64,000 nt of DNA from Roseibacillus sp. (GTDB lineage: Bacteria; Verrucomicrobiota; Verrucomicrobiia; Verrucomicrobiales; Akkermansiaceae), in NCBI GenBank assembly GCA_051251855.1, contig JBPOGI010000003.1, positions 288,001-352,000 of the forward strand, given 5' to 3'. The notes beneath the pieces are model-generated. The model had not been told where the DNA came from and searched no databases. It was given only the letters and a program-made list of their open reading frames with translations. How positions within the stretch are numbered: position 1 is the stretch's first letter; each line of letters starts with the position of its first letter. Of this stretch, positions 40,686-50,457 are shown piece by piece. A program made the translations under genes and the position numbers.

Positions 40686-42059
40686 TTATTCTAACAAGAG
40701 GGTAGGGTCGTCGCTGGCGTTTTCGTCATCGAGCTCGAGGGCGGGGATGGAGGGGATTTGGCCGCCGATGATGCCTTGCATGTCGCCGTAAAGGCCGACG
40801 GTGTTTTTGACGACGCGCTCGATTTGTTTTTCGCGCTCTTTCCACTGCTTTTCCATCGCACGTTTTTCGCGGATGATCTGCAGTTGCATGGCTTCGAAGG
40901 CTTCTACGATGCCGGTGATTTTTTGCTGAAACTGGGTGCCGGCAAGATACTGATAGAGCATCTCCATTTTTTCATTTTTGCCGACGGAAGCGAGTTGCTC
41001 GCGGTTGACGACGAGGAGTTGTTCGCGGAGGGCAAGGACAAGGGAAAGAGCGGAGGCAGGGTCGGAGACCCAGACGCCATCGATGCGGCCAAAGCGCTTG
41101 ATGCTGGCGGGGAGGGCGACGGAGACGAGAATGCCGAGGACGGCGCGTTTCTCTTGCATGTCGTCCTTGAATTTGGTGAGCCAAGCGTCGCTCCAAGTCT
41201 TAGTGTTTTTGGTTTCCCAAAGGATGATGCCGCAATCTTGCGAGAGGGGGGTGCGCACGTTTTGCACGATGTCGGCACCGCGCACGCCTTTGGAGACGGG
41301 GGTGATTTCGTCGTGAGGGAATGATTGCCGGAGTTGTTCTTCGAGATCGATTTCGAGGGCCTCGCCTTGGCTTTCCATGGAGCCTTGTTCGGCCTTGCGC
41401 TTCATGTCTTCGACGGAAGTTTTGAGGCTGCGGATCATCTGGTCCTTTTCGAGCTCCTTGAGGCGGTGTTGCTCGCCGAGCTTTTCAGTGACCTCCTTGC
41501 TAATTGCTTCGCGCTCGGTGTCGAGTTTGCGTTGCATGGCGAGCTCGGCTTCCTCTTTTTCCTTGGCGAGTTCGCGTTGTTTTTTGCGGAGTTCGAGTTC
41601 TTGGTCTCGTAGGGCTTTGAGGCTGGCGTCTTTTTCGGCAGCGGATTCTTGCAACTCTTTAAGTTGAACTTGGAGTTCTTCCTTGGCTTTGGCGGTGGCC
41701 TTGGTTTCGGCTTCGGCGAGTTTGCGCTTGGAGTCTTCGCCTTGTTCTTTCAGGGAAGATTGAAGTTCTTTGAGCTGGTCGGCGTAGCGGGCTTCGAGTT
41801 TTTTGGCGGCAGCGGCTTCGAGTTGGGCGGATTGCTTCTTGAGCTCGCTGGCAACGAGTTCGTCGACGCTTTCTTGGTTTTTGGCGAGTTGGGCGGCTTG
41901 CTCTTTGAGGGCAGTGGTGCGCTTTTTGAGGTCGACCTCGCGTTGGGTGAACTCTTCCTTCAGCTTGCCTTCGAGCTGTTCGCGGATTTGGCTCTGGAGC
42001 GCGTCGGAGAGTTCAAACTGATGGTCGCAGTTTGGGCAAGTGATGGAGCCTTCGTTCAT
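40686..42059 (-). CDS. DUF2130 domain protein
   Basis: ITCPNC N-terminus, long coiled coil, QGEALE, GADIVQ, ILWETKNTK. Confidence 0.85.
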   Translation of the reverse strand: MNEGSITCPNCDHQFELSDALQSQIREQLEGKLKEEFTQREVDLKKRTTALKEQAAQLAKNQESVDELVASELKKQSAQLEAAAAKKLEARYADQLKELQSSLKEQGEDSKRKLAEAETKATAKAKEELQVQLKELQESAAEKDASLKALRDQELELRKKQRELAKEKEEAELAMQRKLDTEREAISKEVTEKLGEQHRLKELEKDQMIRSLKTSVEDMKRKAEQGSMESQGEALEIDLEEQLRQSFPHDEITPVSKGVRGADIVQNVRTPLSQDCGIILWETKNTKTWSDAWLTKFKDDMQEKRAVLGILVSVALPASIKRFGRIDGVWVSDPASALSLVLALREQLLVVNREQLASVGKNEKMEMLYQYLAGTQFQQKITGIVEAFEAMQLQIIREKRAMEKQWKEREKQIERVVKNTVGLYGDMQGIIGGQIPSIPALELDDENASDDPTLLLE

Positions 42060-42181
42060 GGAGGAAGGCTAGGGTTGGAATTTGCTGCTGGGTAGCTGAA
42101 TTGGTGACAATTCGGGCGGGGAAGATGTGTTTGGAGGTTTACCCAGCCTGAGTTGTTACCAACTCAGCTACATTGAGTTTT

Positions 42182-42874
42182 TTAAGCGGCTTCGAGAGGC
42201 GGCATGCTGCGTCTGCGCAGGAAGGCCATGAACCCTGTGATGGCGAGGAGGAGGGCGACCAGTTGGTAGCCGGAAAGGCCGAGGAAGGGCTTGGGGGTGG
42301 CGCGGAGGAATTCGTGGGCGAAGCGGAAGAGGCCGTAGCTGATGAGGTAGAGGTGGAAGTGTTGGTTAGGAAGGAAGTGGAAGCGGCGGAAATTGAAGAA
42401 GGTAAGAAAGGCGAGGAGGTTGAACGTGATTTCGACCGGGACGGAGGGCCAGTAGTTGAGGGGACCGAGTTCGCAGGCGATGCCGCGACAGCAGCCATGG
42501 TGCAGGCAGCCAAGGCGGCCGACGATGAGGGCGAGGGGGACGACAGCGGCGAAGCCGTCTCCGGTGGCTTTGTGATAGCCGAGGACTTTCTTGGCGAGTT
42601 CGACCCCGATGAAGCCGCCGAGCAACGCTCCGGTGACGGACTTGCCGGTGAGCCAGTGGAGAAGACGCTGGTCTGAGGCAGCCACGAGCCAGCCTTCAGA
42701 GAGAAGGTAGGCGAGCTTGGCTCCGATGAAGGCGCAGGCGAGGGCGGCTCCGTAGATGAGCGGAATGAGGGGGTCGCTTTTGCTACGACGAATCCAGTAG
42801 ATGGCAGATCCGATGATGCCGATGAGCATGGTCAGAGCGTAGATGGGCGAGCCTTCTGAAAGAGTTGTTGGCAC
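42182..42874 (-). CDS. Atypical prolipoprotein diacylglyceryl transferase (Lgt) family paralog
   Basis: Multi-TM; GRLGC..GCC.G, WPSVPVE, YGLFRFAHEFLR; GTG start inferred. Confidence 0.85.
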   Translation of the reverse strand: MPTTLSEGSPIYALTMLIGIIGSAIYWIRRSKSDPLIPLIYGAALACAFIGAKLAYLLSEGWLVAASDQRLLHWLTGKSVTGALLGGFIGVELAKKVLGYHKATGDGFAAVVPLALIVGRLGCLHHGCCRGIACELGPLNYWPSVPVEITFNLLAFLTFFNFRRFHFLPNQHFHLYLISYGLFRFAHEFLRATPKPFLGLSGYQLVALLLAITGFMAFLRRRSMPPLEAA

Positions 42875-42887
42875 GAAGTTTTCGATT

Positions 42888-43211
42888 CTAGTTAGAAATA
42901 GAAAAAGCCAAGCAGCCGTAACTGCCTGCACTGAGGCAGAAGAGGACCTCGACAAAGGGGTAACCAATCGCGCACAAGGTCATTTGCCGACCTCGAAGGC
43001 GTTTTGAAAGATTTCTGCCAAAGTAACCCCAGCAGATGAAGATGGAAAGGAGGAGGATGACCCCAGTCCAGTCAGAAAAAGCGGAGGATTGAATCTTGGT
43101 TGAGAGGAAGAGAAGGAGAATAGTGAGAAAGGGCGGGGCCAGAAGAGAAATCCAGAGACCCTTCGTGCTGAAGCCTTCGTAGAGGAGAGGGCCTGGGGTG
43201 GGTTCGGTCAT
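42888..43211 (-). CDS. 3-TM membrane protein with a C-terminal YGC
   Basis: Pro-rich N-terminus, three hydrophobic helices, ends ...CLSAGSYGCLAFSISN; ATGA overlap with the upstream gene. Confidence 0.75.
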   Translation of the reverse strand: MTEPTPGPLLYEGFSTKGLWISLLAPPFLTILLLFLSTKIQSSAFSDWTGVILLLSIFICWGYFGRNLSKRLRGRQMTLCAIGYPFVEVLFCLSAGSYGCLAFSISN

Positions 43212-43735
43212 TCGAGTTCCGCTGGTTCAGAAAGGGTGGTGGGACCATCGATTGGTTCTTCGACTGATTGAAGGTCGTGTCCGGTGCCTTTGATCGCTTC
43301 TTCCATTCTCTGCCTGGCTTCTTCTAATTCGACAGGATCGATGGGGTCTTCTCTGGCGCGTCTTTCTTGCTCTTCCACCCAGCTGTCGGGGGCGCTGTGT
43401 CCCCAGTTGCCTTCCCACGAAGTGAGGCAGCCGAAAAAGAAAAGGGTGACGCAGATGGCGGCTTGCACAAGGGGATAGGCGATGAGGCAGATCACATATC
43501 CCGCAGTTGGCATCCGCTTGAAGAGCGCGAAACCGAAAAGAATCCATCCTGCGATGACGGCAAGACTGCCTAAAATAATGGAAGTCGAGATGAAGTCGAA
43601 TTTGAGATGAGCAAAGGCGAGGCCGGTTAGGAGAGCCATCAAAGCGATGGGTCCCATGAGAGCAAGCCAGAGAAGCTTGTGGTTGATTTTTTTCCTCTCG
43701 GGAAGGCTGGGTGGGTTTGCGAGTTGTTCGTTCAC
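43208..43735 (-). CDS. 3-TM membrane protein with FGC and an acidic C-terminal tail
   Basis: GTG start (VNEQLANPP); three helices; CLIAYPLVQAAICVTLFFFGCL aligns with the neighbour. Confidence 0.75.
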   Translation of the reverse strand: MNEQLANPPSLPERKKINHKLLWLALMGPIALMALLTGLAFAHLKFDFISTSIILGSLAVIAGWILFGFALFKRMPTAGYVICLIAYPLVQAAICVTLFFFGCLTSWEGNWGHSAPDSWVEEQERRAREDPIDPVELEEARQRMEEAIKGTGHDLQSVEEPIDGPTTLSEPAELE

Positions 43736-43790
43736 GGGAGGAATTCTATCGGCTAAAAATGGAGTTGGCGAGGTCTCGGTGTGCAGGAAT

Positions 43791-45146
43791 TTACTCCAAT
43801 CCGTAGTAGCGGCAGAAGGAGTCGAGTTTGCCGTCGGGGCGGATGACGTGGGTGCAGCAGCGGTCGATGCGGTCGTCGTCCCAAGTGGAGGCATCCATGA
43901 AGGGCTTGATGAAGAGGCGGTAGGTGTCCTTTTCGCGGAGCTCGAATTTCTTGAGGATTTCGCCCAGCTCGGTGTTGTCGCAGCCGCATTGCACGAGGTC
44001 TGAGAGGTTGTATCGAATCTTGTCCTGCAAGAATCCCTGCACTTTTGCGAAGTCGAAAAAGTGGGAAACGCTACGCGTGCCGAGGGGGGTCTTGAGCAGG
44101 TAGCCGATGGTGGCGCAGTTTGGATCGCCACAGGGCAGGGGAGTAAAGTCGTCGGGCCCGAGTTCTTCTCCCGATTGTTCCATCAAGCCGAGGATGACGT
44201 CCGCTGTATTGAGGCGCCGCTCTTGGGCGTGGGTGCGGCCAGAGTGGAACATGGGTTGAAAGGACACTCCGCGACAGCTCTCGAACTCGAGACCGAATTG
44301 CACTGTCTCCCACAAGTGGGGAAGGTTCTCGGGAGTGACGGTCATGGCGAGGGTGACGGGGAGGTCGATTTCTTCGCAGTTGGCGAGAGCCTTCTTCTTC
44401 ATGGTGCGCAAGTCGGAGCCACGGAGTTCGACCTGGCCTGCTTCTTGGGGGCCGTCGAATTGGAGGTAGAGCTGGATGTGGCCTCGGTCCGTGCGTTTGG
44501 AGAGTTCTGTTAGGAAGTCTTTGTCGCCAGCGAGTTTGACGCCGTTGGTGTTGATGAGGGCATAGTCGATACGGGGTTCGTCGTGAATCCAGTCTAACAA
44601 TTCGAAGAACTCAGGATGGAGGGTAGGCTCGCCTCCGGAGAGTTGGAGGAGTTCGATGTGGCCTTTACGATCGAGGACTCCGGTGATGCGCTGTTGCAGG
44701 GCGGCGAGGGAATGATACTTGAGGCGCTCGCCGGTGCCGGCGGGGGAGTCGGCGAAGCAGGTGGGGCAGGCGAGGTTACAGGAGTCGACGATCTCGATGA
44801 GAGCGAGACAGGTGGAGAGTTGCTCGATGGTGTCGGGTTGGCCTGCGTTTTTACCTAAGGTTCCTGGGAGACCTGCGGAATCTGCGGGGGAGCAGGCGCA
44901 ACCGGGGCCACAGCGGTTGTCGTCGGAGCCTTGTGCGAGCCAGTAAAAGCGGGCATCGGAGGAGATGAGGGAAGTGGAGGAACCGTGCTCGGGGCAGGTG
45001 CGGCGGAGATGGACCTCGGATTTACCGGAGTCAGTGTTGAGCTTGAGGACTTCGGCTGGCACGCGGGTATGGCATTCCGGACAGCGGGAAGTGGTGCGTT
45101 TGAGTTCGCGTGGATCGCGGGAGAGGATGGGTGGGAGGTTGTTCAT
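43791..45146 (-). CDS. Radical SAM enzyme, Tes/MJ0619 (tetraether synthase)-like family
   Basis: N-terminal CPEC...CPEH metal site, CNLACPTC, LSGGEPTLHP, NTNG, YLQFDG, PLPCGDPNC, PFMD...RCCTH...SFCRY. Confidence 0.85.
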   Translation of the reverse strand: MNNLPPILSRDPRELKRTTSRCPECHTRVPAEVLKLNTDSGKSEVHLRRTCPEHGSSTSLISSDARFYWLAQGSDDNRCGPGCACSPADSAGLPGTLGKNAGQPDTIEQLSTCLALIEIVDSCNLACPTCFADSPAGTGERLKYHSLAALQQRITGVLDRKGHIELLQLSGGEPTLHPEFFELLDWIHDEPRIDYALINTNGVKLAGDKDFLTELSKRTDRGHIQLYLQFDGPQEAGQVELRGSDLRTMKKKALANCEEIDLPVTLAMTVTPENLPHLWETVQFGLEFESCRGVSFQPMFHSGRTHAQERRLNTADVILGLMEQSGEELGPDDFTPLPCGDPNCATIGYLLKTPLGTRSVSHFFDFAKVQGFLQDKIRYNLSDLVQCGCDNTELGEILKKFELREKDTYRLFIKPFMDASTWDDDRIDRCCTHVIRPDGKLDSFCRYYGLE

Positions 45147-45508
45147 AAAGAGAAGAGCATACACCCGAAGCCGATGGAAAAAACCACAGCGGGAGCGACG
45201 AGAATTTGGAGGAGACAGAAGATGAGTGTTTTCCAAGCCACCGAGCCTAGGGTTACACATTCACTGCCGTCTTCGGCTGTGATTTTTAGAATAGCGGCAA
45301 AGATGCCGCTACCCAAAAGAACGAACACTAAAACAAACCAGAAGCCGAGTTCGACGAGGTTGGGATTATGGCTGGCACGGTAGGTGAAAACGTAGGAGAG
45401 GAAAGCGAACCCAATGAAAGAGGCTCCCGGGAGAATCCAGCAGAAAAAAGTTAACCACGCATGTGCAGCAGTTGGCTGAGGTCGTGGAGGTGGAGGGGGG
45501 CTTTCGAT
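45143..45508 (-). CDS. 3-TM membrane protein with a C-terminal FGC (start non-canonical or lost)
   Basis: Frame open from 45574: IESPPPPPRPQP...3 helices...FSIGFGCMLFSL; ATC at 45508 lies downstream of GGGAG; ATGA overlap with the rSAM gene. Confidence 0.6.
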   Translation of the reverse strand: MESPPPPPRPQPTAAHAWLTFFCWILPGASFIGFAFLSYVFTYRASHNPNLVELGFWFVLVFVLLGSGIFAAILKITAEDGSECVTLGSVAWKTLIFCLLQILVAPAVVFSIGFGCMLFSL

Positions 45509-45574
45509 AGTAAGATGATAACTCCCGAGTTTCCTCTGTCGAAATTGATTTCTTCGATGAAGGGATTGAATGGA

Positions 45575-46663
45575 TCAATCAGAGTTCTCGCGCTGCCACC
45601 TCGCTTCGAAATCACCTTTCGACTTTACCCAGCCCACAGCTAAGACTTTTTCAATTTCGAATTGTCGTCGTCGGGCGTCATCAGGGTGACTTTTGAGTTG
45701 AAGAGTCATCCGTTTCTCCGCGGTGAGTTCGCGGGTAAGAATTCTCTCGGTGACTGAGCCAGCGGCTGCGTAGGCAGTGACAGCCTCTTGCTCAAGATCT
45801 GGGCTGGTGAGGCGGTAGGCGCGCCAGAGCCTTTCATCCGCAAAACGAAAATTGTAGTAGCTGTCTGGGATGGCTTGGATACGAACCTCGGCGGATTCCT
45901 CTGTTCGCTTGATACTTGGGTTTTCGGTTTCTTCTAACCAGTGAGTGAGGGCCCTGCTGTGTCGGGCGTAGGCCTCCCAATCGACTTTGGGGCCGTCATC
46001 GGTTCTTACCACGAAGAGGATGCGGGCATCGCCGTTTGCGAATCGGGTTTGGTAGCGTTCGATGCTGAGATCTCCCGCAATCACTTCGCCCATGGGCTTG
46101 CCCGAGACCCCGACTTCAGAAACAGCTTGGGGTGGGAAATTGGGAAGGAGAGTAGCGATACGTTCGGGGTCGAGGCAGTGCTTGAGACGTTCATTAACAT
46201 CGTCGGTTTTGGCAAATGCCATCGCCACGACATGGGGCAAAGGGCCTTCCACGGGGGTGAGATTCATGGCCGCGATCTCGTCGTCCATGGTTTGCTCAGG
46301 GACTGAGGAAGGGGATGTCTCGGCGACTTCTTTTCTGTTTTTTAGGAAAGAGAGAAGGAGAGCTCCGAGGATAAATAATGAAACAAGGGCAAGAGTGAAG
46401 ATGAGCCACTTCGGAGCTTTGGCTTCGACTCTGCTGCTGCCATCGGTCCATACCCCCTTGCGCGATTTTCTAGCTCTTCTTTGTTCGACAACGGGAGCCT
46501 GTTTTTGATGTTTCGAACGGTTCTTGTATGGTTTTGCGGGAACTTGCTGGGGAGCGTTCGCTTGCGCTGACTGGCATTTTTTCTCGTTGGATTTTTGCCA
46601 AGAAGCATTCGAGCGATCGGGTCTTTCCAAACCCCTTCTTTCTTCAAGCTTCCGAATCTTCAT
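45575..46663 (-). CDS. Hypothetical single-TM protein
   Basis: Basic N-terminus, one TM helix, periplasmic domain with PKVDWEAY and DSYYNFRF. Confidence 0.7.
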   Translation of the reverse strand: MKIRKLEERRGLERPDRSNASWQKSNEKKCQSAQANAPQQVPAKPYKNRSKHQKQAPVVEQRRARKSRKGVWTDGSSRVEAKAPKWLIFTLALVSLFILGALLLSFLKNRKEVAETSPSSVPEQTMDDEIAAMNLTPVEGPLPHVVAMAFAKTDDVNERLKHCLDPERIATLLPNFPPQAVSEVGVSGKPMGEVIAGDLSIERYQTRFANGDARILFVVRTDDGPKVDWEAYARHSRALTHWLEETENPSIKRTEESAEVRIQAIPDSYYNFRFADERLWRAYRLTSPDLEQEAVTAYAAAGSVTERILTRELTAEKRMTLQLKSHPDDARRRQFEIEKVLAVGWVKSKGDFEARWQRENSD

Positions 46664-46726: not shown

Positions 46727-46795
46727 TTGTTAATCCACGTCAATTCAGTTTAATTTTAAGTGGAGTGTGGTGAGGTGTTCCTTGTTCTCACTAGT

Positions 46796-47920
46796 ATGCG
46801 TAAAAAAATCATGTCGATTTATCAATTCGGGACTTTCTTGACTGTTCTTTTTGTCTCTCTGTCGTGTTCGAGTTGTCGTGAGCAGGAAGAGAGCTCAGTG
46901 ATTCCGCCGGAGAGAGAGCCTGAGGTGGTTTTTCAGGTGCCGGTGCCTGAACTCCCTGAGTTGGATTGGCAGACTGTAAGGGCCTTCAATCTTCCTTTGA
47001 ACAATCCGCCCCACGTTTGGCCAGAAGAGGCGGTGTTCATGCGAAAAAGTGACATCGTCTTGGGGGTGCTCCTCGGCGATGAGGCGAGAGCTTATCCTTG
47101 GGATCTCTTATCAAACTTTCATGCAGTGAATGACTATCTGGATGGTCAACCCATCATTGTCAATTTGTGCGAAGCTTGTAATGGGGGGGCTGCTTTTTTG
47201 GCTACTTTGCCCGACACGGTGATCGATATTCGTCCCCGAGGTCTGAAAAACGGAACTTGGTATGGAGTCGATTTTCAAACTGGGAGTCTCTGGTACCCTT
47301 TTGTGGGGGAGGCGTTCGAGGGGCCGTTGAAGGGGACGAAATTAGAGCGCATTCGAGTCTATTTTTCGAGCTGGGGAGACTGGATTCGTGACCATCCTAA
47401 TTCATCAGTGGTAATGACCTCTCATGAAGTGAAAATGCGGCCTCACGCGCGCCAAAGCCGGATGGCCGATCCTTCCACATTTAATCCTCAGTATTTGAAA
47501 CGAATCGTCAGAGCGCAAAAGAATCCTAGGCGCTCCCTCTTACCTGGGAATACTTTGGTCTTTGGCCTTATTCCTAAAGAGGGGGAGCCGGCGCGGGCCT
47601 TTACCGTTGAATCGTTGGGTGACACCAAGTCTCTCGTTCAGACGAGTCTGAGCGACACGCCTATCGTGCTGTTGTTGCAGAATCGCTATCAGATTGGAGC
47701 GTATCAGCGACTTTTCAAAGGGCAGGAGCTCAAGTTCGAGCTCACATCCAAAACTCCCTTGGTGATGAAGGACCAGCTGGGTAATCGCTGGGATATGTGG
47801 GGGCGGACTCTTGCGGGGCCGAATCATCCTAGCGAATTGGAATTGGCGGATGGCTATCTGGCAAAATGGTATGAGTGGATTGAGAACTTCCCAGAAACAG
47901 AGGTTGTTAAGGTTGAATAG
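46796..47920 (+). CDS. DUF3179 domain protein, probable lipoprotein
   Basis: VLGV...EARAYP, HAVND, CEAC, TGSLW...GEAFEGPLKG, W..W...HP; lipobox-like LSCSSC. Confidence 0.8.
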   Translation: MRKKIMSIYQFGTFLTVLFVSLSCSSCREQEESSVIPPEREPEVVFQVPVPELPELDWQTVRAFNLPLNNPPHVWPEEAVFMRKSDIVLGVLLGDEARAYPWDLLSNFHAVNDYLDGQPIIVNLCEACNGGAAFLATLPDTVIDIRPRGLKNGTWYGVDFQTGSLWYPFVGEAFEGPLKGTKLERIRVYFSSWGDWIRDHPNSSVVMTSHEVKMRPHARQSRMADPSTFNPQYLKRIVRAQKNPRRSLLPGNTLVFGLIPKEGEPARAFTVESLGDTKSLVQTSLSDTPIVLLLQNRYQIGAYQRLFKGQELKFELTSKTPLVMKDQLGNRWDMWGRTLAGPNHPSELELADGYLAKWYEWIENFPETEVVKVE

Positions 47921-47972
47921 AAGGGCGACCTTTCATCTGTCTGTTGGATTTTGATTCTAAAATTCTTGCTAA

Positions 47973-47986
47973 TACAATTTCATGCA
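47973..47986. promoter_or_regulatory. Putative operator TGCA-N6-TGCA (copy 4)
   Basis: TACAATTTCATGCA upstream of the CRTAC1-family gene. Confidence 0.5.
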
Positions 47987-48075
47987 ATTCAATAGCCTTC
48001 GGCTAAATTGAAAGGTTGAGTCTGTTCTCGGCTTTCAAAAATCTTTTCTACTCATTCTCACCTCTCAAAAATCGC

Positions 48076-50457
48076 ATGAACTTTCTGATTTATTCCTGTG
48101 TTCAGCTTCGTTCCTCATTGGTTCGTAGCCGTTTCTTCCTTTGCACTCTTATTGGGTGGGGAATGGTGTTGGCTTTCTCCTCCTTGTCGATTGTCTATGC
48201 GGAGGTGATCTCGGCAGAGCCCCAAGAAATTTTAGAAGAGCGAAAGGTGCTGGATGAGACCGTCTGGGAGGACGAGGTGGAGGCGCAAGAATATGAAACC
48301 GTTTTTGTGAGTCTTTGGGATCGGATTCGTGATGAAGACGGGCCTTTCAAGCTTTCGATTCTTGCTGACTTTCCTTTCAACGGTGAACTGACGATGGGAA
48401 CGCGGGGGAAGGCGGAACCGCTGGAACAGGGAATGACCCAAACCTACTTTGAGAACGAGACGCTGCAGACTTTCACCGCTTCGAAGTGGCGTAATTATGT
48501 TCGTGCTTTCAAAGCAGCGGGTATCGAGGTGGTTCAGACCGAATGGCATCATAGTCGGTTCGTGCCAGGCACGGAGACTTCGGCTCCCAAGTCTGAAATC
48601 TCTTTTGCGATTCACGCCAAGCGCGAGTCGACGCAAACGGCCTTCGCCTTCAAGGGTGAGCTTGAGGTGCAATGGTCAAAAGACGATCCGAGCGAACGAT
48701 TGGATGGCGCGGTGCCTGATTCTCTCACGGTCACGAAGCTCAAGATGAAAGAGCGGACGGGCGGCGGAGGTTTCAATCAAATTTGGGAAGCGCGGCATGG
48801 TCGGGAGGACTGGATCTCAGCCTATCCGATTCTGGCCTACGATCTGGATGGGGACGGGCTTTCTGAAATCATCCTTCCTCGCTGGAATCGGGTCTACCGG
48901 AATATGGGTGATCGCGAGTTCAAGCGGGAAGACTTTCTCGCTCATCCTGTTGATATCTGGGAAGCGGCGATTCTTTCGGACTTTAACGGCGATGGTCATG
49001 TTGATTTCGTGACGGTGGGGAAAGATGGTTCCCCTTATTTCTTTGCTGGCACGGCAGAGGGTAAGTTCCCAACCGAGGGAAAAGTCTGTGCGGATGTTCA
49101 CTTTGATATGCCGACTTCAGTGACGGCGGGCGATGTCGATGGCGATGGCGACCTCGACCTGTGGATGGCGCAATACAAGCTCTCTTTCATGGATGGTCAG
49201 ATGCCCACTCCCTACTATGATGCGAATGATGGCCCTCCCTCCTACTATCTGGAAAATGATGGGAACGGTTCCTTCATTGAAAAGACGGAGAGTGTTGGCC
49301 TAGCTCCTTTGCGCAACCGACGAACCTACTCAGCATCCTTCGTCGATCTTGATGAGGATGGCGATCTCGATCTGATGAATGTTTCCGATTACGCGGGCCT
49401 CGATATCTATGAGAACACGGGGAAGGGCCAATTCGAACTCGCGACCGAGGACTATGTCGATCAGCGCCACTTCTTTGGGATGGGGCATACGATCGGGGAT
49501 TATAATGCGGATGGGTTGCTCGACTTTTACGTCATAGGGATGTCTTCCACCACGGCCCGTCGATTGGACCGGCTGAATCTTGGGCGCGAGGACCGACCCG
49601 ACGTGCATCCGATGAGGGGGCCGATGGGCTATGGCAATCGCATGTATTACGGGACCAACGAAAAGAGTTTTCAGGAGGATAAGGAAGTGGCAGGTGCGGT
49701 GGCACGGACGGGATGGTCTTGGGGCACGACGAGCTTCGACTTTGATTTAGACGGGGATCAGGACATCTATGTGGCGAATGGACACCGGAGCGGGAAGTCT
49801 TGTTCGGACTATTGCTCGACCTTTTGGAGGCATGATATCTATACCGGTGACTCGAAGGCGAACCCGCTTCTGTTAGAAGTGTTTGCGACCACTCTCCAGG
49901 ACCTGAATAAGGATGAGGTGTCTTGGAATGGGTATGAGAAGAATGTTCTGTTCGTGAATCACGAGGACCGGAGTGAGCGCTTTGTGAATGGCTCCTTCAT
50001 GTTCGGCGCGGCGCATTCCTACGATGCGCGCTGTGTGATTTCCGACGACTTGGATGGTGACGGGCGTCCGGATTTGATTGTGGCGGAGTCCAAGTGGGAT
50101 GGCCGTGGTTCCGCTCTCATCATTCGCGCCTTTGGCAACGATGTCGAAATCGATCCGGACAACAATTGGATTTCGATTCAACTTAGAGAGTCTGCCGGCG
50201 CGGGACACTCTCCCAATGGAGCGAAGGTCGCGATTACCGATGATTCCGGGCGTGTGCAGACGAAGTGGATTGTGAGCGGGGACTCGTTCTTGTCCCAGCA
50301 TGCTCCGGTGGCTCACTTTGGTTTAGGTCATGTTAAAGGAGTAAAGTCTGTGGAAGTGACTTGGCCGAATGGGAAGATCGAGAAGCATGATGCTGATTCT
50401 TCGGTGAATACGATGCTAACTTTGCGGGGCAGCGAGCTGAGTTCATCTTCGGAGTAG
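48076..50457 (+). CDS. CRTAC1 family protein (FG-GAP/VCBS repeats plus ASPIC/UnbV domain)
   Basis: Repeated D.DGDG..D, GWSWG, VANGH, GDSFLSQ...HFGLG, VTWPNG; start uncertain. Confidence 0.88.
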   Translation: MNFLIYSCVQLRSSLVRSRFFLCTLIGWGMVLAFSSLSIVYAEVISAEPQEILEERKVLDETVWEDEVEAQEYETVFVSLWDRIRDEDGPFKLSILADFPFNGELTMGTRGKAEPLEQGMTQTYFENETLQTFTASKWRNYVRAFKAAGIEVVQTEWHHSRFVPGTETSAPKSEISFAIHAKRESTQTAFAFKGELEVQWSKDDPSERLDGAVPDSLTVTKLKMKERTGGGGFNQIWEARHGREDWISAYPILAYDLDGDGLSEIILPRWNRVYRNMGDREFKREDFLAHPVDIWEAAILSDFNGDGHVDFVTVGKDGSPYFFAGTAEGKFPTEGKVCADVHFDMPTSVTAGDVDGDGDLDLWMAQYKLSFMDGQMPTPYYDANDGPPSYYLENDGNGSFIEKTESVGLAPLRNRRTYSASFVDLDEDGDLDLMNVSDYAGLDIYENTGKGQFELATEDYVDQRHFFGMGHTIGDYNADGLLDFYVIGMSSTTARRLDRLNLGREDRPDVHPMRGPMGYGNRMYYGTNEKSFQEDKEVAGAVARTGWSWGTTSFDFDLDGDQDIYVANGHRSGKSCSDYCSTFWRHDIYTGDSKANPLLLEVFATTLQDLNKDEVSWNGYEKNVLFVNHEDRSERFVNGSFMFGAAHSYDARCVISDDLDGDGRPDLIVAESKWDGRGSALIIRAFGNDVEIDPDNNWISIQLRESAGAGHSPNGAKVAITDDSGRVQTKWIVSGDSFLSQHAPVAHFGLGHVKGVKSVEVTWPNGKIEKHDADSSVNTMLTLRGSELSSSSE

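Follow-up and report, generated by a model that had tools for sequence, protein, structure and literature searches.

Introduction

Radical S-adenosylmethionine (SAM) enzymes of the Tes family join lipid tails through carbon-carbon bonds in archaea, and Lgt transfers diacylglyceryl to the cysteine of a lipobox. Zeng and colleagues reported 456 bacterial Tes homologues and proposed that they synthesize branched tetraethers (PMC8941075), and Lloyd and colleagues wrote of bacterial Tes homologues with an unknown reaction (PMC9433317, in part). For a second Lgt of Mycobacterium smegmatis, a preference for a different lipid has been speculated (10.1101/2025.01.07.631728, in part), and the radical SAM family TrsS is a table row in the single paper in which we found it (PMC13188914, in part). 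Here, we analyze a 64,000-nucleotide window from Roseibacillus sp. (contig JBPOGI010000003.1, positions 288,001 to 352,000), in which five adjacent minus-strand genes between positions 42182 and 45508 encode a small membrane protein (A), a radical SAM protein (rSAM), two further small membrane proteins (B and C), and a paralog of Lgt, in that order. A sequence-only reading of the window had proposed that this operon lipidates a cysteine of dedicated membrane proteins and that the rSAM modifies the lipid chains. The module is real, widespread, and apparently undescribed, and the enzyme pair is also present in Bacteroidota and Actinomycetota. We found no description of the rSAM-Lgt pairing in the literature searched, most subscription journals lying outside its coverage; the words "lipoprotein" and "neighbor" are absent from the main text of PMC8941075 and "Lgt" from three of its supplements, and neither "Lgt" nor "lipoprotein" occurs in the accessible portion of a 2026 review of lipid-modifying radical SAM enzymes (PMC13459092). 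With confidence evenly divided, we propose a dedicated module for S-lipidation of intact membrane proteins with a lipid that the rSAM has altered.

Conserved pairing of the radical SAM enzyme and the Lgt paralog

We surveyed an even sample of 121 genomes of the host family and 151 genomes of the phylum, and analyzed the best 80 of 427 genome loci with an rSAM of this type. In the family sample, the Lgt paralog was present in 24 genomes and the rSAM in 25; all 24 coincide, and 96 genomes have neither. The extra rSAM match is a truncated piece (G184:C11:8170-8496). The two genes are neighbors in 22 of the 24 genomes and unlinked in 2, and in one of the neighboring pairs a frameshifted rSAM lies beside an intact paralog (G203:C25:47865-49180). 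Among the 80 loci, a paralog lies within 6 kb of the rSAM in 65, and in 54 of the 56 where at least 3.5 kb of downstream sequence is available; at the other 2 of these 56, it is found elsewhere in the same genome. Across the phylum, the module is uncommon: the zinc-ribbon domain was matched in 9 of the 151 genomes, 6 of them over the cut-off, and the paralog adjoins in 2 of the 5 other phylum genomes over that cut-off. The sequence-only reading had suggested a neighborhood survey of rSAM, Lgt, and GC proteins, and the association proved to be conserved in other genomes. The co-occurrence upholds a conserved, dedicated system of a Tes-family rSAM, an Lgt paralog, and cysteine-bearing membrane proteins.

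The pairing extends to mobile elements and distant hosts. A plasmid collection held the rSAM family in 11 records and the paralog in 5, all 5 as adjacent pairs, from Chondrinema, Persicobacter, Nonomuraea, and two Mycobacterium plasmids, thus including Bacteroidota and Actinomycetota. In all four of the plasmid pair regions examined, there are also genes for small proteins that close with G-x-C and a short tail. Six plasmid rSAMs are unpaired, and in 2 of 2 examined, a methyltransferase stands in place of Lgt. A viral collection contained one full-length member of the rSAM family (L184), without Lgt. At 80 metagenome loci of a second rSAM clade, an Lgt-type gene was detected in 61, and in 33 of the 36 with 1.5 kb on both sides; this set is biased because its query was a fusion. 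Two protein clusters, P0150 and P0200, are clean in-frame Lgt-rSAM fusions with the rSAM on the Lgt C terminus, which in Escherichia coli Lgt is cytoplasmic (PMC8048626, in part). No fusion was found among the 80 metagenome loci, and two further candidates were left out of the tally, P0271 as an apparent frameshifted join and P0285 as an apparent chimera with another rSAM.

No further general neighbor emerged: a four-helix protein without known family occurs at 9 of the 80 loci, and at 4 the adjoining gene encodes a beta-lactamase-family hydrolase (e.g., L075 9296-10468). A membrane methyltransferase of the ICMT/PEMT family adjoins the rSAM at three loci (L098 4064-4798, L099 4590-5264, and L102 9516-10208), two of them Lgt linked and one with two family rSAMs and no Lgt paralog. 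We give little weight to a CAAX-like reading with ICMT and Rce1 partners, which rests on two loci and one fusion cluster and clashes with the inferred topology.

Small membrane proteins with a cysteine at the end of the last helix

Protein A (45143..45508, minus strand; 121 amino acids [aa]) has C116 at the end of helix 3 and the tail CMLFSL; protein B (43208..43735, minus strand; 175 aa) has C103 at the end of helix 3; and protein C (42888..43211, minus strand; 107 aa) has C100 at the end of helix 3 and the tail CLAFSISN. All three open reading frames (ORFs) show three hydropathy peaks with GC at the end of the third. The description of these sites as C-terminal lipoboxes in the sequence-only reading did not survive comparison with the canonical pattern [LVI][ASTVI][GAS]C (PMC8048626, in part): GFGC, FFGC, and SYGC all miss it (0 of 3), and in protein B the cysteine is residue 103 of 175, followed by a 72-residue acidic tail.

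The helix-end cysteine is a recurrent property of the neighborhood. Small ORFs were defined by two to four hydrophobic stretches, with cysteine not scored as hydrophobic. A cysteine at the end of the last helix was found in 163 of 196 such ORFs near the 80 rSAM genes, compared with 108 of 561 in the host genome and 9 of 46 in flanking regions, so chance does not explain it; the host-genome control covers six frames, so that many of its ORFs are not genes, and includes two of the operon proteins. The narrower pattern [GAS]C at the end of the last stretch occurs in 128 of 196, against 29 of 561 and 1 of 46. In a second set of loci, 80 of 99 small ORFs had the cysteine. Phenylalanine is commonest at position -3; position -1 is G, A, or S in the Planctomycetes-Verrucomicrobia-Chlamydiae (PVC) clade and, in most second-clade proteins, V, A, T, L, or I. 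The tails are hydrophobic and short (median, 9 residues), and often end in N-F-H, D-F-K, or N-L-H; [NDS][FLMIV][HKR]-stop closes 20 of 163 proteins and 11 of 78 in the second clade, and this ending, recurrent in both clades, is a possible recognition signal.

On average, 2.6 basic residues lie in the loop that leads into the last helix and 0.4 in the first 10 residues of the tail; in some second-clade members, the cysteine comes after an initial helix that resembles a signal peptide. The basic loop and these signal-like helices are compatible with a cysteine on the outer face, where Lgt works (PMC8048626, in part), and the charge bias suggests N-in/C-out insertion. Two proteins carry a soluble domain after the cysteine (L047 4488-5516 and L073 4218-5189), that of L073 without a Pfam match. 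Three others (at L169, L177, and L183) have an N-terminal signal-like stretch and a soluble domain before the helix, and their topology may be reversed.

The three proteins are probably related. Protein A matches the profile of subfamily A7 (E 1.5e-18; A is itself a row of A7), and B is a paralog of C (tblastn E 3e-3 and 4e-4; A6 profile E 3.6e-12). All 20 rows of alignment A6 have the cysteine, a cysteine ending having been the criterion for their selection; alignment A4, with an out-of-frame row, was set aside. Comparison of the profiles of the two subfamilies gave a probability of 78% (E 1.8e-5). Searches of Pfam and NCBIfam returned no significant family, a match to the immunity protein Sip4 at E 0.04 being dismissed; the matches in a protein atlas were unnamed hypothetical clusters (0.91-0.92) whose recognition value fell short of the mark; and the host genome holds no further copies. 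A predicted complex of the Lgt paralog with protein C reached an interaction score (ipSAE) of 0.46, compared with 0.01 for the best control, with at least 72% contact agreement and a predicted local distance difference test (pLDDT) value of 76 for the partner. At values of 0.60 or below, 18 of 157 solved complexes passed the benchmark mark, and both of the passing mismatches (2 of 215) also lay there, so the modeled contact is weak support.

Retention of the cysteine in genomes with and without the enzymes

In profile searches of the same 121 family genomes, 20 of the 24 module genomes and 5 of the 97 others had homologues of the small proteins; one of these five, a weak match in a 554-aa ORF of G216 (E 9e-4), was removed before orphans were counted. 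In six enzyme-bearing genomes (G173, G176, G186, G202, G214, and G224), all 10 off-operon homologues retain the cysteine. In the four enzyme-less genomes (G170, G193, G217, and G227), it is kept in 1 of 7. These four are 95 to 98% complete, one as a single contig; in each, the housekeeping Lgt is the sole Lgt and a full-length family rSAM is missing. The sole kept cysteine (G217:C8) occurs where two small genes that elsewhere flank the rSAM now abut, as after a deletion. Fisher's exact test gives p 0.0006 (A7 alone, p 0.012), but the related sequences are not independent. The proposal of a dedicated target is thereby strengthened, since the cysteine follows the enzymes, and these data suggest that the helix-end cysteine is the site on which they act. 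The truncated rSAM of G184, the frameshifted rSAM of G203, and the apparent rSAM deletion in G217 look like signs of module decay. Cysteine-less homologues persist as open frames where the enzymes are missing, which suggests that the body of the small protein has a role of its own.

That persistence also bears on whether the product is a lipopeptide, similar to a ribosomally synthesized and posttranslationally modified peptide, released by a cut before the cysteine after lipidation and consisting of lipid-Cys plus 4 to 13 residues. The tail does not exceed 14 residues in 149 of 163 proteins and in 67 of 78; this shortness, the tail ending shared by both clades, and the tandem, hypervariable genes would suit such a product, as would the LspA encoded in the genome and the paralog fusions to a serine hydrolase (12 clusters) and an Rce1-like protease (one cluster) described below. 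However, a strict lipobox is present in only 15 of 163 relatives and 4 of 78 in the second clade, where V, T, L, or I predominates at position -1; neither peptidases nor exporters adjoin the module as a rule, the hydrolase being at 4 of 80 loci; the cysteine follows the first helix in some members; and open frames outlast the cysteine. We consider a released lipopeptide unlikely, and the lipidated peptide that the sequence-only reading offered as one product is disfavored by the rare lipobox and the persisting cysteine-less homologues.

The radical SAM enzyme belongs to the Tes structural family

The rSAM (43791..45146, minus strand; 451 aa) contains PF23545 and PF04055 domains (Pfam) and is 94% identical to the rSAM of Roseibacillus persicicus. 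Every motif named in the sequence-only reading is present: C22xxC25...C51xxH54, C123xxxC127xxC130, PC339GDPNC344, QC387GC389, RC430C431TH, and FC445RY. Its sole full-length solved relative is GDGT-MAS/Tes of M. jannaschii (E 1.4e-35). The predicted model (pLDDT, 85) aligns to 7TOM with Z 39.7 and a root mean square deviation of 2.6 over 392 residues at 28% identity; the next fold has Z 19.5, the Foldseek match to the Tes fold has E 1e-31, and the model reproduces the overall Tes fold of rubredoxin, SAM-barrel, and C-terminal cluster domains. On the curated NCBIfam models, it scores 159 bits for Tes (NF045702; cut-off, 450) and 204 bits for TrsS (NF045646; cut-off, 490). The attribution to Tes is thus right for the structural family, by fold, and wrong for Tes itself, by the curated model and by the absence of M439 and Y459; the claim of a Tes architecture is further qualified by a C-terminal cysteine set that differs between the two Lgt-linked clades.

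C22, C25, C51, H54, C123, C127, and C130 are each present in 64 of 64 PVC-type and 53 of 53 second-clade rSAMs. The PVC-type Lgt-linked enzymes also keep C339, C344, C387, C389, C430, C431, C445, and K414 in 64 of 64. All 53 second-clade enzymes keep C339, C431, and a CC pair and have S or T at position 430 and E or D at 445. The N-cluster loop of the Roseibacillus rSAM is degenerate (C79, C83, and C85, with no His) and is a low-confidence loop in the model; a full CPxxCGxCxxH-type N-cluster motif occurs in 0 of 64 PVC-type and 52 of 53 second-clade rSAMs.

Two trees were built, both quick trees in which no sequence exceeds the Tes cut-off: none of 77 representatives scanned did so, and a profile search of later matches found none with the Tes tail motif that could be assigned as Tes. 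In the first tree, all 35 Lgt-linked rows fell outside a branch (support, 91 to 96) of 9 TrsS and 2 unlinked rows; in the second, the two Lgt-linked groups were unresolved at the base. The 9 rows above the TrsS cut-off formed a separate branch with support of 98 to 99, joined by 2 to 5 other rows. A single origin of the Lgt-linked rSAMs is allowed by these trees.

The Lgt paralog keeps the lipid-site arginines and lacks H103

The genome encodes two Lgt proteins, a housekeeping enzyme (G000:C6:721879-722823; 238 bits on PF01790) and the operon paralog (42182..42874, minus strand; 230 aa), which scores 75 bits on PF01790 (gathering cut-off, 24.9) and, below the level of a housekeeping Lgt, 33 bits on TIGR00544 (cut-off, 119). 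The sole match of its predicted model (pLDDT, 92) at an E value of <0.001 is E. coli Lgt, 5AZB (E 5.5e-5; template modeling score, 0.60). Residues were numbered through the genome's own housekeeping Lgt and the 13-residue motif of Legood and colleagues (bioRxiv 10.1101/2025.03.27.645668, in part). Ten of the 13 are kept (equivalents of Y26, G104, G142, R143, G145, G154, Y235, R239, E243, and R246); the housekeeping motif is broken at H103 (T81), N146 (C123), and E151 (C128). In an alignment of 71 paralogs, R143 is present in 71, R239 in 70 (one is cut by a contig end), and cysteine replaces N146 in all 71. The position of H103 is V, L, M, I, or A in 42 of 42 pattern-matching second-clade sequences. 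K78 is a new lysine, and K or R before the H103 position is invariant in the paralogs.

The cysteines also occur in other Lgts. Cysteine variants of N146 and E151 have been seen in distant Lgts, and MSMEG_5408, the second Lgt of M. smegmatis, carries Y26H and N146C (bioRxiv 10.1101/2025.03.27.645668, in part). The only Lgt of genome G145 (199 bits) has both N146C and E151C, so these changes need not abolish transfer, and the special marks of the paralog are the loss of H103 and the new lysine. The paralog is probably derived from a working cysteine-type Lgt. We set aside C123 and C128 as a sign of a dead or redox-only enzyme, an idea weakened by housekeeping-type Lgts with the same cysteines.

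Twelve protein clusters (P0272-P0279 and P0281-P0284) have the paralog fused to a beta-lactamase-family serine hydrolase, which may trim the tail or an ester, and one (P0280) has it fused to an Rce1-like CAAX protease.

The loss of H103 also invites the idea that the rSAM itself makes the protein-lipid bond, abstracting hydrogen from an acyl chain and joining carbon to thiol as an alkyl thioether, with the paralog merely presenting lipid and helix. Tes makes a lipid C-S bond as an intermediate (PMC9433317, in part), the helix-end cysteine lies within a hydrophobic run, the C-terminal Fe-S ligands are remodeled, and the fusions couple both enzymes. Against this, the charge pattern would put the cysteine outside, away from a cytoplasmic Fe-S enzyme; R143, R239, and other headgroup-site residues are kept in 70 to 71 of the 71 paralogs; and the enzymes are unlinked in 2 of 24 genomes. 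We judge bond formation by the rSAM to be quite unlikely.

A proposed route to lipidated helix-end cysteines

From the gene content, co-occurrence, fusions, folds, residues, and cysteine-enzyme link observed here, we infer the following chemical steps, their order, and the topology. The small proteins, by their charge bias, would insert N-in/C-out with the cysteine near the outer end of the last helix. The cytoplasmic rSAM would take an acyl chain of a phospholipid into a Tes-like tunnel, where, as the Tes fold suggests, a 5'-deoxyadenosyl radical and the C-terminal Fe-S site would alter it. This step most plausibly precedes transfer, which would make the anchor unusual; we place it first because a chain fixed in the outer leaflet would be hard for a cytoplasmic enzyme to reach. 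The Lgt paralog, judged by its fold and by R143 and R239, would recognize a nonlipobox site and transfer glycerolipid from a phosphatidylglycerol-type donor to the cysteine thiol, and the product would most likely be an intact, uncleaved membrane protein. Within this proposal, we give about half the weight to tail-to-tail C-C coupling, yielding a macrocyclic or membrane-spanning anchor, and the rest to sulfur insertion or another change of the chain.

Several observations weigh against S-lipidation with an altered lipid. Thirty-three of the 196 neighboring small ORFs lack the cysteine, some of them belonging to other families. Residues +2 to +5 after the cysteine are hydrophobic, a run that usual lipoproteins are not known to have. 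The loss of cysteine in enzyme-less genomes comes from A7 only (3 of 3 versus 0 of 6, a small test), and 10 of 50 in-operon A7 members lack the residue; with the nonindependence of kin, this makes the cysteine-enzyme link a strong lead rather than proof. None of the residues T, V, L, M, I, and A that replace H103 could act as a base, N146A and H103Q are nonviable in E. coli (bioRxiv 10.1101/2025.03.27.645668, in part), and the second M. smegmatis Lgt, with Y26H and N146C, reportedly did not complement a Corynebacterium glutamicum lgt deletion (PMC12462473, in part, citing others). In the rSAM, the stretch from the barrel to the C-terminal strands has 67 residues compared with 118 in Tes (about 50 fewer), and Tes M439 and Y459 correspond to K414 and V434, which occur in 64 of 64 PVC-type sequences. 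Among 1,000 archaeal Tes sequences, neither Tes residue varies, yet their mutants remain active (PMC9433317, in part), so that their loss marks a different subfamily for which similar chemistry is still possible. Finally, the two cysteines common to Tes and TrsS, C430 and C445, are gone in 53 of 53 second-clade rSAMs, where they would represent lost ligands of the C-terminal cluster, and this makes a single Tes-type C-C coupling chemistry for all members doubtful.

A different end point would be a free membrane-spanning or macrocyclic lipid, with the small proteins as transient carriers or regulators loaded through their cysteine or through C123 of the paralog. Tes acts on free phospholipids and copurifies with bacterial ones (PMC9433317, in part), bacterial Tes homologues have been proposed as makers of branched tetraethers (PMC8941075), and C123 is present in 71 of 71 paralogs. 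A catalytic carrier, however, should be conserved and single, whereas the small proteins vary and a single operon can encode as many as five of them; the distribution of the module is patchy (24 of 121 family genomes, and about 6 of 151 phylum genomes with the zinc-ribbon domain over cut-off); and, at stringent cut-offs, Sahonero-Canavesi and colleagues detected Tes homologues in no diabolic-acid producers and in only 3 of 14 iso-diabolic-acid-producing acidobacteria (PMC13159169, in part). A free lipid product seems to us improbable. A nonlipid role, in which the cysteine-rich paralog is a transmembrane thiol or metal relay and the rSAM matures a cofactor or small molecule, would fit the best NCBIfam score being to TrsS (204 bits) rather than Tes (159 bits), the family rSAMs beside or fused to methyltransferases and nucleoside triphosphate transferases, the chance that TrsS and the methyltransferase-linked relatives mature such molecules, and the CxxxGCC of the PVC paralog, but is very improbable given that the GCC cysteines are absent from Bacteroidota and Actinomycetota paralogs and present in housekeeping-type Lgt, that the phospholipid-binding arginines are kept, and that the Lgt-linked rSAMs stand apart from TrsS and methyltransferase-linked rows in both trees.

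Should S-lipidation with an altered lipid be right, it would be a protein modification that unites radical lipid chemistry with thioether lipidation of helix-end cysteines, and it would urge caution in paleoclimate studies that take each bacterial Tes homologue for a branched-tetraether synthase. The module brings two puzzles, the bacterial Tes homologues and the N146C second Lgts, into one operon with one named residue. Its boldest form, which we hold to be possible but doubtful, is a third bacterial route of protein lipidation, in which tails welded within one phospholipid or between two give a membrane-spanning or macrocyclic glycerolipid on the helix-end cysteine. Fast-evolving small membrane proteins would then be stapled through both leaflets, a function would be at hand for much of the unexplained set of Tes homologues in bacteria and for second Lgts such as MSMEG_5408, and the protein-bound product would have escaped lipid extracts. 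The tandem, fast-changing copies of the small-protein genes in a patchy module resemble envelope-defense or recognition genes, and the modified proteins might have a role of that kind.

Gene starts and surroundings of the operon

Reexamination confirmed the gene order, the shared strand, and both ATGA overlaps (45143-45146 and 43208-43211) given by the sequence-only reading. Positions 42000-46000 are identical in one public assembly, from which this DNA may itself derive. Position 45574, its operon edge, is the limit of a stop-to-stop frame, and no gene starts there. No ATG, GTG, or TTG precedes the first helix of gene A. Two named Roseibacillus species (L001 5606; L003 5626 region) have an ATC at the position equivalent to 45508, and at one of these two loci translation could begin only with ATC or ATT, given a stop codon four codons upstream; ATC 45508 is the most likely start of gene A. 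Such a conserved start codon other than AUG could restrict or regulate translation of the gene. The most likely starts of gene B and the Lgt paralog are GTG 43735 and GTG 42874, with resulting gaps of 55 and 13 nt.

The stretch AAATCAATTTC upstream of gene A is identical at three Roseibacillus-type loci. It is overlapped by a sigma-70-like site, TCGACA-16-TATCAT (45515..45542, minus strand), which ends 7 nt before the ATC of gene A and is weak by itself, because 2 such sites were found where 1.6 would be expected by chance.

The upstream 362-aa gene and the downstream DUF2130 gene were rejected as module parts, with matches at 1 of 80 and 0 of 80 loci. The short intergenic sequence that follows the Lgt paralog (42084-42129 of the window) resembles a small dispersed repeat, with 11 further blastn matches spread over five of the genome's contigs. 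Just upstream of the operon (46760-50457) lie two divergent genes, one for a DUF3179 protein and the other for an FG-GAP/ASPIC-UnbV protein; on a haloarchaeal plasmid, an unrelated family rSAM is likewise flanked by DUF3179 genes, probably by coincidence. In Roseibacillus persicicus, an opposite-strand 780-aa gene (L001 7423-9765) splits the operon between the rSAM and B, and three A-type genes, one without the cysteine, lie upstream.

Relation to known systems

The rSAM resembles Tes/GDGT-MAS (MJ0619; 7TOL and 7TOM; NF045702) in its four-part architecture, its fold, the rubredoxin-like CxxC...CxxH, the CxxxCxxC, and the FMD...RCC.H...FC.Y tail. It differs in being 28% identical, with a degenerate N-cluster motif and extra PCGDPNC and QCGC cysteines, and in belonging to a bacterial host of an aerobic lineage and being tied to an Lgt paralog. 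TrsS (NF045646) gives the best curated score, matches over the full length, and has C344, C430, and C445 in common with it. Unlike TrsS, the module rSAM stands on a separate branch in both trees and has no in-frame TGA, and DVU_1551/DVU_1556-type partners, fused to TrsS in P0254 and P0260, are absent from the module. Mss of Thermoanaerobacter and Thermotoga likewise represents bacterial radical SAM coupling of fatty acyl tails (PMC13459092 and PMC13159169, both in part); it is reported to occur in anaerobes and to be only remotely related to Tes (PMC13159169, in part).

The paralog shares with Lgt (E. coli 5AZB; PF01790; TIGR00544) the fold and 10 of 13 motif residues, including R143 and R239. 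It differs as a second copy with H103T, N146C, and E151C, a new invariant lysine, and a much shorter head region, whose putative substrates have two or three helices and no N-terminal signal peptide and, for the most part, lack a lipobox. The Y26H and N146C reported for MSMEG_5408 (bioRxiv 10.1101/2025.03.27.645668, in part) recur in a module-linked paralog on a Mycobacterium branderi plasmid; the portions of the sources cited here describe MSMEG_5408 only as a weak or redundant Lgt and mention no link to an rSAM or a small cysteine protein. Each enzyme of the module is a variant of a known family, and the combination of rSAM, Lgt paralog, and cysteine protein is apparently undescribed.

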